DNA from: Escherichia coli
GTDB lineage: Bacteria > Pseudomonadota > Gammaproteobacteria > Enterobacterales > Enterobacteriaceae
Strand: one strand, 5' to 3'
Assembly: GCF_024502345.1 (NCBI RefSeq)
Contig: NZ_JALDNN010000001.1
DNA length: 64,000 bases
Shown: positions 4,309 to 62,331 of the stretch, piece by piece
Layout of the letters: the number at the start of each line of letters is the position of its first letter
Numbering within the stretch: the stretch's first letter is position 1
Position numbers and translations under genes: made by a program
Notes under the pieces: generated by a model
The model's database searches: none
What the model saw: the letters and a program-made list of their open reading frames with translations, nothing else
Told to the model about the DNA's origin: nothing

Positions 4309-4439
4309 CATTTTGTCCTCATTATCCTTCCATTTTCGTGCTGCAAAGACTGCCACAATGTGAGGTCGCCGTCACCACTTCAACTGGCGAAAGCGCCCTC
4401 ATCCTGACATAATCCCTGTTCAAATCAACAGGGGGTAGT

Positions 4440-7928: not shown

Positions 7929-9614
7929 TTGAAGAAGGTTTGGCTTAACCGTTATCCCGCGGACGTTCCGACGGAGATCAACCCTGACCGTTATCAATCT
8001 CTGGTAGATATGTTTGAGCAGTCGGTCGCGCGCTACGCCGATCAGCCTGCGTTTGTGAATATGGGGGAGGTGATGACCTTCCGCAAGCTGGAAGAACGCA
8101 GTCGCGCGTTTGCCGCTTATTTGCAACAAGGGTTGGGGCTGAAGAAAGGCGATCGCGTTGCGTTGATGATGCCTAATTTATTGCAATATCCGGTGGCGCT
8201 GTTTGGCATTTTGCGTGCCGGGATGATCGTCGTAAACGTTAACCCGTTGTATACCCCGCGTGAGCTTGAGCATCAGCTTAACGATAGCGGCGCATCGGCG
8301 ATTGTTATCGTGTCTAACTTTGCTCACACACTGGAAAAAGTGGTTGATAAAACCGCCGTTCAGCACGTAATTCTGACCCGTATGGGCGATCAGCTATCTA
8401 CGGCAAAAGGCACGGTAGTCAATTTCGTTGTTAAATACATCAAGCGTTTGGTGCCGAAATACCATCTGCCAGATGCCATTTCATTTCGTAGCGCACTGCA
8501 TAACGGCTACCGGATGCAGTACGTCAAACCCGAACTGGTGCCGGAAGATTTAGCCTTCCTGCAATACACCGGCGGCACCACAGGTGTGGCGAAAGGCGCG
8601 ATGCTGACTCACCGCAATATGCTGGCGAACCTGGAACAGGTCAACGCCACCTATGGGCCGTTGCTGCATCCAGGTAAAGAACTGGTAGTAACGGCACTGC
8701 CGCTGTATCACATTTTTGCCCTGACCATTAACTGCCTGCTGTTTATCGAACTGGGTGGGCAGAACCTGCTTATCACTAACCCGCGCGATATTCCAGGGTT
8801 GGTAAAAGAGTTAGCGAAATATCCGTTTACCGCTATCACTGGCGTTAACACCTTGTTCAATGCGTTGCTGAACAATAAAGAGTTCCAGCAGCTGGATTTC
8901 TCCAGTCTGCATCTTTCCGCAGGCGGTGGGATGCCAGTGCAGCAAGTGGTGGCAGAGCGTTGGGTGAAACTAACAGGACAGTATCTGCTGGAAGGCTATG
9001 GCCTTACCGAGTGTGCGCCGCTGGTCAGCGTTAACCCATATGATATTGATTATCATAGTGGTAGCATCGGTTTGCCGGTGCCGTCGACGGAAGCCAAACT
9101 GGTGGATGATGATGATAATGAAGTACCACCGGGTCAACCGGGTGAGCTTTGTGTCAAAGGACCGCAGGTGATGCTGGGTTACTGGCAGCGTCCCGATGCT
9201 ACAGATGAGATCATCAAAAATGGCTGGTTACACACCGGCGACATCGCGGTAATGGACGAAGAAGGTTTCTTACGCATCGTCGATCGCAAAAAAGACATGA
9301 TTCTGGTTTCCGGTTTTAACGTCTATCCAAACGAGATTGAAGATGTCGTCATGCAGCATCCTGGCGTACAGGAAGTCGCGGCTGTTGGCGTACCTTCCGG
9401 CTCCAGTGGTGAAGCGGTAAAAATCTTTGTAGTGAAAAAAGATCCATCGCTTACCGAAGAGTCACTGGTGACTTTTTGCCGCCGTCAGCTCACGGGCTAC
9501 AAAGTACCGAAGCTGGTGGAGTTTCGTGATGAGTTACCGAAATCTAACGTCGGAAAAATTTTGCGACGAGAATTACGTGACGAAGCGCGCGGCAAAGTGG
9601 ACAATAAAGCCTGA
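7929..9614 (+). CDS. fadD: long-chain fatty acid CoA ligase
   Basis: 561 aa from TTG at 7929 ([14 protein letters not shown]...); AMP-binding motif [11 protein letters not shown]; ORF-track start at 7863 is a 22-codon upstream extension. Confidence 0.92.
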
Positions 9615-9633
9615 GCGTTAAGTCAGTCGTCAG

Positions 9634-9659
9634 ACGCCGGTTAATCCGGCGTTTTTTTT
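9634..9659 (+). terminator. rho-independent terminator of fadD
   Basis: acgccggttaatccggcgt stem-loop followed by T8. Confidence 0.8.
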
Positions 9660-10817: not shown

Positions 10818-10860
10818 CCGAAGCCGGACTGGGCGCGCTCAACGCCACATCCGGCTTCGG
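10818..10860. repeat. inverted repeat between convergent rnd and yeaX, possible bidirectional terminator
   Basis: ccgaagccgga ... tccggcttcgg, 11-bp arms, no T-run. Confidence 0.4.
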
Positions 10861-10864
10861 CAAA

Positions 10865-11830
10865 CTACAAATCCAACACCAGGCGTTTACCCTTCGCACG
10901 CGAACAACAGATCAACATACTTTGCTGGCTGGCACGCTCTTCATCGCTAAAATACTGATCCCGATGGTCAGCTTCACCTTCCAGTATTGCCGTTTCGCAG
11001 GTTCCGCATACCCCTTCACGACATAAACATTCCACTTTCGCGGCTTTATTATTTTCAATAACCTGCAAAATAGTCATCTCTTCCGGCACCACAAACTCTT
11101 TTCCGGAACGGGCAAGCACCAGGGTAAATGCATCGCCGGTTTTGTCTTCGATAGCAAATTGCTCAAAGTGCAGCGTATCGGCGGCGATGTCCAGACGCGT
11201 AGCTTCACTTCTTACCGCTTCAATTAGCGCCTCGGGGCCACAGGTATAAACGTGTGTGCCAGGTTCGATATCCGCCAATAATCGCGCTAATTCCAGTCGT
11301 GTTCCGGTTGATGAATGATGCAAATGGACTTTCTCAGCCTGCGGATGCTGGACTAGCTCATCACGAAATGCGCAACTTTCTGGATTTCGCGAGCAGTAAT
11401 GTAGCTGCCAGTCGACGTCGCTGTGTTGCAACTCTGCCATGTGCGACAGGAAAGGGGTGATACCAATACCGCCCGCGATAAACAGATGCTTTCTGGCTGA
11501 GGGAATTAGCGCAAACAGGTTATTAGGCGTTGAGATCGTTAACCGATCGCCCACTTTTACCTGCTGATGCAAAAAGCGGGAACCGCCGCGCGAGTTTTCT
11601 TCCAGTCGAACGGCAATCTGATAATGAGTTGTATCGAGAGGCGAACTCAGCAGTGAATACGCATTGCTGTACTGGTTATCACCATCGCTCATCTGCACAA
11701 TGACGTGACTTCCTCCAGTAAACGCAGGTAATGGTTTGCCATCGGTTGCCACCAGCGTGAAGCGTTTCACCTGTTCGGTAAGGGGTTCCACCTGACTCAC
11801 CTGTACTTCAAACATTTGATAGTCTGACAT
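10865..11830 (-). CDS. yeaX: carnitine monooxygenase reductase subunit (ferredoxin-NAD(P) reductase with 2Fe-2S domain)
   Basis: 321-aa ORF; C-terminal CxxGxCxxC ferredoxin motif (CREGVCGTC). Confidence 0.88.
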   Translation of the reverse strand: MSDYQMFEVQVSQVEPLTEQVKRFTLVATDGKPLPAFTGGSHVIVQMSDGDNQYSNAYSLLSSPLDTTHYQIAVRLEENSRGGSRFLHQQVKVGDRLTISTPNNLFALIPSARKHLFIAGGIGITPFLSHMAELQHSDVDWQLHYCSRNPESCAFRDELVQHPQAEKVHLHHSSTGTRLELARLLADIEPGTHVYTCGPEALIEAVRSEATRLDIAADTLHFEQFAIEDKTGDAFTLVLARSGKEFVVPEEMTILQVIENNKAAKVECLCREGVCGTCETAILEGEADHRDQYFSDEERASQQSMLICCSRAKGKRLVLDL

Positions 11831-11885
11831 TGCTGTACTCCATCAAAAATCAGCCCAGCGGCGGAAAATACCGCCGCCGATGTCA

Positions 11886-12095
11886 TTAGTCCTTAAATAC
11901 CTGCGCCAGCAGATTATGGAAATGGGCGATACCATGTTCGGAAATGCCGCTACCGCTACTGTCGGCCATGATGCGCCCCTGACCACGATAGCCACGCGAT
12001 TTCAGCCCTTTCTGTACGCTTTCAACCAGACGTAAATCTTCCGGACGGAACACATCGCGATACCACTCAATCAGCGATTTTTGCTCGTCGGTTAA
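11886..12095 (-). pseudogene. yeaW: 3-prime remnant of carnitine monooxygenase oxygenase subunit; N-terminal Rieske and catalytic domains absent
   Basis: 73-aa ORF ends 56 bp upstream of yeaX and its 5-prime end overlaps the dmlR start region; tail LTDEQKSLIEWYRDVFRPEDLRLVESVQKGLKSRGYRGQGRIMADSSGSGISEHGIAHFHNLLAQVFKD matches my recollection of the YeaW C-terminus. Confidence 0.6.
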
Positions 12096-12119
12096 CTGGT
12101 GAAACATAAAACACGAATC

Positions 12120-13043
12120 ATGAATAATTTACCGCTGCTGAATGATTTGCGCGTCTTTATGCTGGTGGCTCGCCGGGCTGGTTTTGCCGCCGTGGCGGAA
12201 GAACTGGGCGTTTCACCGGCGTTCGTCAGCAAGCGCATCGCCTTGCTGGAGCAAACGCTAAACGTGGTGTTGTTACACCGCACCACCCGCCGCGTCACCA
12301 TTACCGAAGAAGGAGAGCGGATTTATGAATGGGCGCAGCGGATTTTGCAGGATGTCGGTCAGATGATGGACGAACTTTCTGACGTGCGTCAGGTGCCACA
12401 GGGGATGCTGCGTATTATCAGCAGCTTTGGTTTTGGACGACAGGTGGTGGCTCCGGCGTTATCAGCGCTGGCGAAGGCGTATCCGCAACTGGAATTACGT
12501 TTTGATGTGGAAGACCGGCTGGTCGATTTGGTCAATGAAGGTGTCGATCTCGATATTCGCATTGGCGATGACATTGCCCCTAATTTAATCGCCCGCAAAC
12601 TGGCGACCAATTACCGCATTCTCTGCGCGTCGCCGGAATTTATTGCGCAACATGGCGCGCCGAAACATTTAACCGATCTTTCTGCATTGCCGTGCCTGGT
12701 CATTAAAGAGCGCGATCATCCTTTTGGTGTCTGGCAATTACGCAATAAAGAAGGCCACCATGCGATTAAAGTCACCGGCCCACTGTCGTCTAATCATGGA
12801 GAAATTGTCCATCAGTGGTGTCTCGATGGGCAGGGGATTGCTCTGCGTTCCTGGTGGGATGTTAGCGAAAACATTGCCAGTGGTCATTTAGTGCAAGTGC
12901 TACCGGAATATTACCAGCCAGCGAACGTCTGGGCCGTTTATGTTTCAAGGCTGGCGACGTCAGCGAAAGTGCGGATAACGGTAGAATTTTTACGCCAGTA
13001 TTTTGCCGAGCACTACCCGAATTTTTCACTGGAACATGCCTGA
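12120..13043 (+). CDS. dmlR: LysR-type transcriptional regulator (D-malate regulon)
   Basis: 307 aa from ATG at 12120 (MNNLPLLNDLRVFMLVARRAGFAAVAEELGVSPAFVSKR...). Confidence 0.85.
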   Translation: MNNLPLLNDLRVFMLVARRAGFAAVAEELGVSPAFVSKRIALLEQTLNVVLLHRTTRRVTITEEGERIYEWAQRILQDVGQMMDELSDVRQVPQGMLRIISSFGFGRQVVAPALSALAKAYPQLELRFDVEDRLVDLVNEGVDLDIRIGDDIAPNLIARKLATNYRILCASPEFIAQHGAPKHLTDLSALPCLVIKERDHPFGVWQLRNKEGHHAIKVTGPLSSNHGEIVHQWCLDGQGIALRSWWDVSENIASGHLVQVLPEYYQPANVWAVYVSRLATSAKVRITVEFLRQYFAEHYPNFSLEHA

Positions 13044-13100: not shown

Positions 13101-13808
<708 letters not shown>

Positions 13809-31957: not shown

Positions 31958-32230
31958 ATGAATCTTGATGACATTATCAACAGCATGACGCCTGAGGTAT
32001 ACCAGCGTTTGTCGACCGCCGTTGAACTGGGGAAATGGCCCGATGGCGTTGCGTTGACCGAGGAACAAAAAGCGAACTGCCTGCAACTGGTGATGCTGTG
32101 GCAAGCTCGCCATAATACCGAAGCACAGCATATGACAATTGACACAAATGGTCAGATGGTCATGAAGAGCAAACAGCAGTTAAAAGAAGATTTTGGTATC
32201 TCAGCAAAGCCTATTGCTATGTTTAAGTGA
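31958..32230 (+). CDS. yeaC: DUF1315 protein
   Basis: 90 aa from ATG at 31958 (MNLDDIINSMTPEVYQRL...). Confidence 0.8.
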   Translation: MNLDDIINSMTPEVYQRLSTAVELGKWPDGVALTEEQKANCLQLVMLWQARHNTEAQHMTIDTNGQMVMKSKQQLKEDFGISAKPIAMFK

Positions 32231-32390
32231 ATGAGTTATCTAGTATTTAAGCCTGTTATTAAGGGAGGGCAAATATACTTGTTAGGACGTCGTGTTTTAG
32301 CTGCAAGTAGGTTAAATGCAACACTGACAAGTATTATCTGGCCTACAATGTCATTGAGGAAATGTAGGCCAGAGATGAATTCAACTAATA

Positions 32391-40047: not shown

Positions 40048-41036
40048 ATGAAAAAAGTTTTATTACAAAACCATCCTGGGAGCGAGAAGTATTCTTTTAA
40101 TGGCTGGGAAATATTTAATAGTAATTTTGAACGGATGATTAAAGAAAATAAGGCCATGCTGCTTTGTAAGTGGGGGGGGGGTATTTAACATGTGTTGTCG
40201 CTGTAATGTTTGTATTCGCAGCGATAACATCCAACGGTTTGAATGAAAGAGGCCTGATTACCGCGGGATGCTCATTTCTTTATCTATTAATTATGATGGG
40301 GCTTATTGTTCGGGCCGGTTTTAAAGCAAAAAAAGAACAGCTGCATTATTATCAGGCTAAAGGTATTGAGCCGCTCAGTATCGAGAAATTACAGGCGCTA
40401 CAATTGATCACACCTTATCGATTCTATCATAAGCAATGGTCTGAAACGCTGGAGTTCTGGCCGCGAAAGCCTGAACCTGGCAAAGATACCTTCCAATATC
40501 ATGTGCTTCCTTTTTACTCGATCGATATCATAAGTAAAAGACGCGAGTCTTTAGAGGATCAATGGGGTATCGAAGATAGCGAAAGTTATTGTGCCTTAAT
40601 GGAGCATTTTCTTTCTGGCGACCATGGAGCCAATACCTTTAAAGCAAACATGGAGGAAGCCCCAGAGCAGGTTATCGCCTTGTTGAATAAATTTGCTGTT
40701 TTTCCCTCTGACTATATCTCTGATTGCGCTAATCATAGCTCCGGTAAATCCTCGGCGAAGCTAATATGGGCGGCGGAATTATCATGGATGACCTCGATAT
40801 CAAGCACAGCTTTTCAAAACGGGACAATTGAAGAAGAACTGGCCTGGCATTATATAATGCTTGCTTCTCGAAAGGCGCACGAGTTGTTCGAAAGCGAAGA
40901 AGATTATCAAAAAAATAGTCTAATGGGATTTCTTTACTGGCATATCTGCTGCTATCGCAGAAAGTTAACGGATGCTGAACTTGAAGCGTGTTATCGTTAC
41001 GACAAGCAGTTTTGGGTGATGCTGCCAACTTACTGA
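40048..41036 (+). pseudogene. ynjI: DUF1266 inner membrane protein gene, disrupted twice (poly-G frameshift and IS1 insertion near 3-prime end)
   Basis: Frame from ATG 40048 (MKKVLLQNHPGSEKYS...CKW) stops at 40188; downstream ORF 40170..41036 is in a different frame; the two join in-frame if the G10 run were G8 or G11; last 6 codons lie inside the IS1 inverted repeat. Confidence 0.75.
40172..40181 (+). repeat. G10 homopolymer tract inside ynjI
   Basis: Ten consecutive G read directly at 40172..40181. Confidence 0.95.
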
Positions 41037-41069
41037 TTTAGTGTATGATGGTGTTTTTGAGGTGCTCCA

Positions 41070-41345
41070 GTGGCTTCTGTTTCTATCAGCTGTCCCTCCT
41101 GTTCAGCTACTGACGGGGTGGTGCGTAACGGCAAAAGCACCGCCGGACATCAGCGCTATCTCTGCTCTCACTGCCGTAAAACATGGCAACTGCAGTTCAC
41201 TTACACCGCTTCTCAACCCGGTACGCACCAGAAAATCATTGATATGGCCATGAATGGCGTTGGATGCCGGGCAACCGCCCGAATTATGGGCGTTGGCCTC
41301 AACACGATTTTCCGCCATTTAAAAAACTCAGGCCGCAGTCGGTAA
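41070..41345 (+). CDS. insA: IS1 InsA
   Basis: 91-aa [46 protein letters not shown]... Confidence 0.93.
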
Positions 41346-41767
41346 CCTCGCGCATACAGCCGGGCAGTGACGTCATCGTCTGCGCGGAAATGGACGAACA
41401 GTGGGGATACGTCGGGGCTAAATCGCGCCAGCGCTGGCTGTTTTACGCGTATGACAGGCTCCGGAAGACGGTTGTTGCGCACGTATTCGGTGAACGCACT
41501 ATGGCGACGCTGGGGCGTCTTATGAGCCTGCTGTCACCCTTTGACGTGGTGATATGGATGACGGATGGCTGGCCGCTGTATGAATCCCGCCTGAAGGGAA
41601 AGCTGCACGTAATCAGCAAGCGATATACGCAGCGAATTGAGCGGCATAACCTGAATCTGAGGCAGCACCTGGCACGGCTGGGACGGAAGTCGCTGTCGTT
41701 CTCAAAATCGGTGGAGCTGCATGACAAAGTCATCGGGCATTATCTGAACATAAAACACTATCAATAA
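41264..41767 (+). CDS. insB: IS1 insB frame; expressed as InsAB' transposase by -1 frameshift from insA
   Basis: 167-aa ORF in -1 frame relative to insA. Confidence 0.88.
41321..41327 (+). promoter_or_regulatory. A6C programmed -1 ribosomal frameshift motif of IS1
   Basis: AAAAAAC at insA/insB frame overlap; insA reads LKNSGRSR*, -1 frame reads KKLRPQSV... Confidence 0.8.
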
Positions 41768-41880
41768 GTTGGAGTCATTACCCAGTTTTGGGAGCACTAC
41801 AGTAAGAAATGCCGTTGGCCCATAAGAAATGTTCCCTGGGGAGCATCATCCGTTAAATACTCATAAACGCCTGAAATTTT

Positions 41881-62181: not shown

Positions 62182-62331
62182 TGTTGACTCCGAATGCTGG
62201 TTATCTATCCAGTGTAACAGGCGGGAAGCGATTAAAAAAGAGGCGGGTTGATGACAAAGGTTACACCGTCTGACGTGCTACGCCTGTCAGGCCTATTCGA
62301 CTCCTGCAATGCATTGAATTTGCATAGTTTT

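Follow-up and report, generated by a model that had tools for sequence, protein, structure and literature searches.

Intact yeaX and dmlR genes flank a probable very recent microhomology deletion of the carnitine/D-malate cluster in Escherichia coli

Introduction

The closest described relatives of the locus examined here are the dmlR-dmlA-yeaV-yeaW-yeaX genes of E. coli, which are orthologues of carR-mdh-bcct-cntA-cntB, the gene cluster for degrading carnitine in A. baumannii (PMC11353897). YeaX of E. coli and CntB of A. baumannii are the reductases of the two-component carnitine monooxygenase, a group V Rieske oxygenase system. In E. coli YeaX the ligands of the [2Fe-2S] cluster are Cys270, Cys275, Cys278 and Cys308 (Piskol et al. 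2022, PMC9508527), and residues E77, S84, H193, Y195, H221, R241 and E259, together with R271, T277, E279, I282, K313, D320 and L321, have been reported to be functionally relevant (PMC9508527). When YeaW is absent, YeaX uses NADH and O2 and forms H2O2, with O2 use at about 10% of the coupled rate (PMC9508527); according to the same source, YeaX also works in vitro with the heterologous A. baumannii CntA. A three-module architecture like that of YeaX is found in the phthalate dioxygenase reductase 2PIA and in the PDR-like reductase domains of self-sufficient P450s (6KBH and 6LAA); the physiological partners of these proteins differ from that of YeaX, and they are of use here solely as a reference for the structure and mechanism of the class IA reductase fold. 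The yeaW/yeaX (cntA/cntB) genes are used as markers for gut microbial trimethylamine production from carnitine.

Here we describe a 64-kb stretch of E. coli DNA, referred to below as the window, in which yeaX occupies the same locus as in the described system, between rnd and yeaW, and encodes a protein with the same domain order (FMN, NAD(H), plant-type [2Fe-2S]) in which all of the mutagenesis-tested residues are conserved. In the window, however, all that is left of the partner YeaW is a C-terminal stretch of 69 residues, and there is no transporter YeaV. We consider it highly likely that this arrangement was produced by one very recent microhomology deletion, and that yeaX is a still-intact remnant of the cluster rather than a gene kept for a new job. 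The gene itself is a known one, and the structural variant in which it lies is of an ordinary, strain-level kind.

Results and Discussion

The yeaX ORF of the window has an ATG start and encodes 321 amino acids on the minus strand, at positions 10865-11830. Its ORF, Pfam domains, homology, conserved residues and annotation all identify it as the cntB orthologue, an intact NADH-dependent FMN/[2Fe-2S] reductase subunit of carnitine monooxygenase. The gene order around it is that of E. coli (tsaB-yeaY-fadD-rnd / yeaX), the matching gene is annotated as 'carnitine monooxygenase reductase subunit YeaX' in E. coli genomes, and nucleotide identity to such annotated copies is 97-99.8%; orthology to the characterised YeaX is supported both by the position between rnd and yeaW and by this near-identity. 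Residues 9-103 of the product matched Pfam FAD_binding_6 and residues 107-218 matched NAD_binding_1/DmmA-like_N, both over cut-off, so that the flavin (FMN)-binding and NAD(H)-binding domains expected of a class IA, PDR-like reductase were found; a Fer2 domain follows at the C-terminus (residues 240-313, E=1.8e-14). The phthalate dioxygenase reductase 2PIA aligned with YeaX end to end (residues 9-321, E=3e-56), and full-length homology to the three reference proteins 2PIA, 6KBH and 6LAA ranged from E=3e-56 to 2e-64.

At the level of single residues, all four plant-type [2Fe-2S] ligands (Cys270/275/278/308) are present in the YeaX of the window, as are the proposed FMN contacts E77 and S84. The residues tested by mutagenesis (H221, R271, T277, E279, K313 and D320) are all kept, and so are the other relevant residues H193, Y195, R241, E259, I282 and L321. 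No frameshift, premature stop or lost start was found in the gene when it was compared with yeaX of strains carrying the intact cluster.

Compared with the K-12-type yeaX, the window allele shows 98% nucleotide identity, with 19 differences in all and four amino-acid differences (L65, T68, H69 and T211), which are also present in strains with an intact cluster. The dN/dS value for this pair, calculated from those 19 differences, is approximately 0.10. This divergence reflects ordinary allelic variation that is older than the deletion described below. The allele of strain Res13-Sevr-PER07-33 is 99.8% identical to that of the window, and exact matches to the latter occur in many assemblies. A Shigella-like origin, prompted by the approximately 98% identity to most E. 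coli, was considered and rejected; the allele is a rarer E. coli haplotype.

In comparison to an intact locus of the K-12 type (L001), 3,746 bp are missing from the window. The blastn homology to L001 reaches window position 12097 (L001 7398) and resumes at window position 12093 (L001 11140), so that the two segments overlap in the pentanucleotide TAACT at 12093-12097, which marks the deletion junction. This 5-bp microhomology is present at both parental sites (L001 7394-7398 and 11140-11144), and one copy is left in the window; a short repeat at both parental sites, of which a single copy is retained, is the pattern of a microhomology-mediated (illegitimate) deletion. No repeat or mobile element was found near the junction in a repeat scan of the window, and an IS-mediated deletion was rejected, as the junction itself holds neither an IS sequence nor a long repeat. 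A single microhomology-mediated (illegitimate) event would thus have taken the core of the dmlR-dmlA-yeaV-yeaW-yeaX carnitine/D-malate cluster, and yeaX and dmlR survive because both lay outside the breakpoints.

The missing DNA comprises the first 913 nt of yeaW, the whole of yeaV, the whole of dmlA and 80 of the 102 bp of the dmlA-dmlR spacer. The gene products lost with it are D-malate dehydrogenase (dmlA), a BCCT transporter (yeaV) and the part of the oxygenase encoded by the first 305 codons of yeaW. What is left of yeaW, as determined by blastn and translation, is a 3' remnant of 212 nt on the minus strand (11886-12097), encoding residues 306-374 (69 codons) and the stop, which the junction brings to 22 bp upstream of the dmlR start codon. 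This remnant has lost the Rieske domain and the greater part of the catalytic domain, with the mononuclear-iron region, and in Pfam it gives a weak C-terminal Ring_hydroxyl_A match only. Across the junction the remnant is extended into a chimeric ORF of 73 amino acids (11886-12107, minus strand), composed of MFHQ followed by YeaW residues 306-374. The original prediction, made from the bare sequence, had described yeaX as a full-length reductase with an intact 2Fe-2S motif and yeaW as truncated immediately upstream of it; both descriptions are borne out, the former by the 321-aa ORF, the Fer2 domain and the four retained cysteines and the latter by the surviving 212 nt. Its account of the extent of the damage was right as to the cut in yeaW and missed the loss of yeaV, of dmlA and of the dmlA-dmlR promoter region.

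The deletion leaves two orphans, yeaX and dmlR, and not one. The dmlR gene (also named yeaT, the carR orthologue; 12120-13043, plus strand) retains an intact ORF of 307 amino acids for a LysR-type regulator, as indicated by its Pfam HTH_1 and LysR_substrate domains and its annotation in E. coli, and it is nucleotide-identical to dmlR of strains with an intact cluster. Its target gene dmlA is deleted, and of the DNA upstream of it only 22 bp (12098-12119) are left. Mutations in the dmlRp3 promoter region have been mapped 35-68 bp upstream of dmlR (PMC6452873), and these sites fall in the deleted stretch.

The 73-aa chimeric ORF, for which no function is proposed, served as an exact-match marker of the deletion allele. 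Exact matches were found in nine contigs, all of them laid out dmlR / yeaW' / yeaX. One of the nine belongs to NCBI assembly GCA_050022275.1; it matches the window at 100% along 16,222 bp and probably represents the same strain or a clone-mate of it. The remaining contigs are human-gut metagenome assemblies from different projects, and in all the junction was seen in at least eight samples. No one-piece alignment across the junction was obtained in any of 5,426 complete E. coli genomes. The deletion allele is thus one that circulates, rarely. Neither stops nor frameshifts were found in yeaX among the deletion-bearing copies. A 152-aa 'truncated yeaX' in one of the loci compared (L011) was rejected as a sign of decay, as it is caused by a run of N in a metagenome scaffold.

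Other E. coli genomes have lost parts of the same cluster in other ways. In the complete genome of EA7, IS1 replaces yeaW-yeaV and most of dmlA; as in the window, yeaX is intact without yeaW, but unlike the window there is an IS1 at the junction and dmlR is frameshifted. In the complete genome of GF4-3 a deletion removes yeaW and yeaV; it resembles the window in losing part of the cluster and differs in that the cut reaches into yeaX and truncates it. Compared with both of these, the window shows a clean join at 5 bp of microhomology, free of any mobile element, and both flanking genes are intact. A third complete genome, that of 118UI, has an internal stop in yeaV. Both yeaW and yeaX are missing from approximately 19% of E. 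coli genomes, UTI89 among them, whereas the window keeps yeaX. These independent losses at the same locus indicate that the cluster is dispensable and deletion-prone. The allele described here is one more case for a locus that is repeatedly lost or disrupted in E. coli, and its importance is modest. A further locus, L009 (ENA ERZ27239021 k119_9983, positions 1-846), begins with 122 bp from the end of an IS1, directly after which comes a yeaW ORF cut to 247 aa; its yeaX haplotype is that of the window, and IS1 may here have disrupted yeaW independently in a near-identical background.

The age of the deletion was approached by comparison with loci in which the cluster is intact. The exact YeaX protein of the window was found in 122 index blocks; 23 of the contigs were read, and every one of these has the intact cluster. 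Over yeaX and the 2.5 kb next to it, six loci with the intact cluster (L003-L006, L008 and L009) match the window at 100%, and over a flank of about 9 kb they differ from it by 2-7 substitutions; in the closest relatives (L003, L008 and L009) the number is 2-3 in the approximately 9 kb of shared flank. Published substitution rates for E. coli lie approximately between 2e-7 and 1e-6 per site and year. On such general rates, the split from the intact relatives would have occurred some 10^2-10^3 years ago at most. The identity of yeaX to its intact-cluster copies and the few substitutions in the flanks strongly support a very young deletion, and both yeaX and dmlR would have remained mutation-free since so recent an event. 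A neutral gene of 966 bp would need far longer than 10^2-10^3 years to acquire an inactivating mutation. With a deletion of this age, the null expectation is that yeaX should still be intact, which is no sign of selection or of a new partner; moreover, as yeaX has taken no substitutions since then, a dN/dS test of the deletion lineage has nothing to count.

One possible objection to this dating comes from three of the gut-metagenome contigs with the junction (L014, L015 and L017). Their junction is identical to that of the window, but beyond about 300 bp from it their yeaX/dmlR alleles are 2-3% off those of the window and resemble the alleles of other lineages, e.g. that of strain 118UI or of K-12. 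Two of the three (L014 and L015) come from different samples, and the junction as such is present in at least eight. The deletion might accordingly be older, the allele having moved between E. coli lineages by homologous recombination with yeaX intact throughout, and having spread perhaps because the loss of a carnitine-to-TMA/D-malate module is favoured in the gut. Should the three contigs be genuine rather than chimeric assemblies, the age or the mobility of the allele would exceed what 'very recent' implies. They are, however, short (0.6-1.8 kb), the coverage of L017 is about 1.9x according to its contig name, and gut samples are often multi-strain, so that contigs may switch strain away from the junction. 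The yeaX of L014 has no exact match in the 4,377 complete genomes carrying the gene (its best match being 99.0%), which fits a mosaic consensus; L010, the sole assembly from an isolate, is window-like, as are the longer contigs L012 and L013, and the junction is absent from all complete genomes. The three contigs could be strain-switching products of mixed samples, or they could record real recombination of the deletion or of its flanks. On balance we regard an older, recombining allele as unlikely, and the single very recent deletion as the better account.

The signals available for expression of yeaX were also surveyed. In a consensus scan, no sigma-70-like site was found on the minus strand between yeaX and position 13200. 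The lone match is weak, lies on the plus strand and overlaps the dmlR start codon; it was rejected as a promoter, as it is not usable. All of the DNA upstream of yeaW codon 306 is missing back to 22 bp before dmlR, and with it any dmlA or yeaV promoter is gone too. The 55-bp spacer between yeaW and yeaX contains, on the minus strand at 11855-11880, a strong GC-rich hairpin followed by a U-run (10 pairs, 8 of them G-C), which was picked up as a terminator-like match by the terminator scan; the RNA of the 11825-11900 region folds with -29.4 kcal/mol (z=-4.56). It looks like a putative intrinsic terminator or attenuator native to the locus, between the oxygenase and reductase genes, where it may help to set the YeaW:YeaX ratio, and would cut read-through into yeaX further. 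On the other side of the gene, an inverted repeat (10818-10860; 18-nt arms, 83% complementary) sits between the stops of the convergent rnd (10811) and yeaX (10865) and is probably a bidirectional terminator, also a native feature. As the upstream promoters are all deleted and the scan returned no substitute, transcription of yeaX is probably slight or absent. Any YeaX that is made would be expected to act as an uncoupled NADH oxidase yielding some H2O2. YeaX alone would be a small liability and not a benefit, and for a partnerless, H2O2-forming NADH oxidase eventual decay or loss of the gene would be expected.

These considerations bear on the second alternative, that yeaX is under selection in this lineage since its product serves another oxygenase, an Fe-S/haem protein or a stand-alone redox role. 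Such a role would be compatible with the intactness of the ORF and of every functional residue, with the activity of YeaX on CntA in vitro, which suggests that docking is not strictly specific, and with the separate IS1-associated deletion of EA7, which also spared yeaX while dmlR there is frameshifted; a disrupted yeaX was found in none of the deletion-bearing contigs. The intactness is nevertheless uninformative on selection, given that not one substitution has accumulated since the deletion, and in other lineages yeaX has been truncated or wholly lost. Across the 5,426 complete genomes yeaX without yeaW is essentially never seen. No candidate partner was found in the window, in which tblastn of YeaW returned the remnant only and no second Rieske oxygenase, and the deleted upstream promoters have no evident replacement. 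A new role for YeaX is in our estimation decidedly unlikely. The original prediction had offered two explanations for the lone reductase. The first of them, a recent deletion that decay has yet to follow, has strong support, yeaX being nucleotide-identical to the yeaX of intact-cluster genomes; the check that it proposed, for inactivating or excess nonsynonymous change in the gene, returned no differences from those genomes. That of recruitment by another oxygenase finds no support, in view of the absence of any other Rieske oxygenase from the window, the co-occurrence of yeaW and yeaX and the loss of the upstream promoters.

The status of yeaX as an orphaned component, also part of that prediction, holds in the window, where its partner is reduced to the remnant and no Rieske oxygenase lies elsewhere. 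The analysis covered 64 kb of the genome, and an intact yeaW or an equivalent oxygenase could in principle reside elsewhere, on the chromosome or on a plasmid; among the complete E. coli genomes there is one plasmid-borne match and there are a few genomes with two copies, and in strain B-766 the cluster is locally duplicated. The deleted part of yeaW was found in 4,372 of the 5,426 complete genomes and yeaX in 4,377, the former at 4,375 places of which one is on a plasmid. In E. coli both genes are thus single-copy and are kept or lost together, and an extra copy of yeaW occurs in <0.1% of genomes. With 4,375 places in 4,372 genomes, and no other Rieske oxygenase within the window, a second yeaW elsewhere in this genome is very unlikely. 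An intact Rieske subunit, required for a functional YeaW plus YeaX system, is missing in the window. Judging from this gene content, carnitine monooxygenase cannot be assembled in the strain, and no trimethylamine would be formed from carnitine by the YeaW/YeaX route.

Finally, an assembly artefact (a collapse or mis-join in a genome that really has the full cluster) might be suspected from the short repeat TAACT common to both breakpoints and from the absence of the allele in 5,426 complete genomes, but 5 bp are far too short to mislead an assembler and the junction must be real because it was recovered identically in nine contigs from different samples, assemblers and archives, so that this explanation can practically be dismissed.

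The allele has a practical consequence for the use of these genes as markers. A strain that carries it would test positive not just for cntB/yeaX but also for the 3' end of cntA/yeaW, though the reaction would be impossible; surveys should therefore demand a full-length oxygenase gene. Where a deletion is fresh, the null expectation is that the ORF beside it is intact, and such intactness is silent on retained function.

Several other features of the window were recorded. The Rfam scan returned nothing in or near the locus but the sRNA sroD downstream of fadD (9573-9658, plus strand, 115 bits), at the 3' end of that gene; farther away, ES036/CssrF (62289-62331, minus strand) scored 38 bits, just over the threshold. 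Both are expected E. coli features. An IS1 is present at 41017-41784 near the 3' end of ynjI, with insA at 41070-41345 and the insB frame at 41264-41767; it is flanked by a 9-bp target duplication, CAGTTTTGG, and is missing from the closest complete genome. It is the only IS1 in the window, approximately 29 kb from the junction. Between yeaC and pncA the 9.2-kb ydjLKJIHGFE cluster is missing, and about 157 bp (window 32228-32386) are found instead; yeaC and pncA are contiguous in 1,089 of the 5,426 complete E. coli genomes, which makes this a common polymorphism and not a private deletion.
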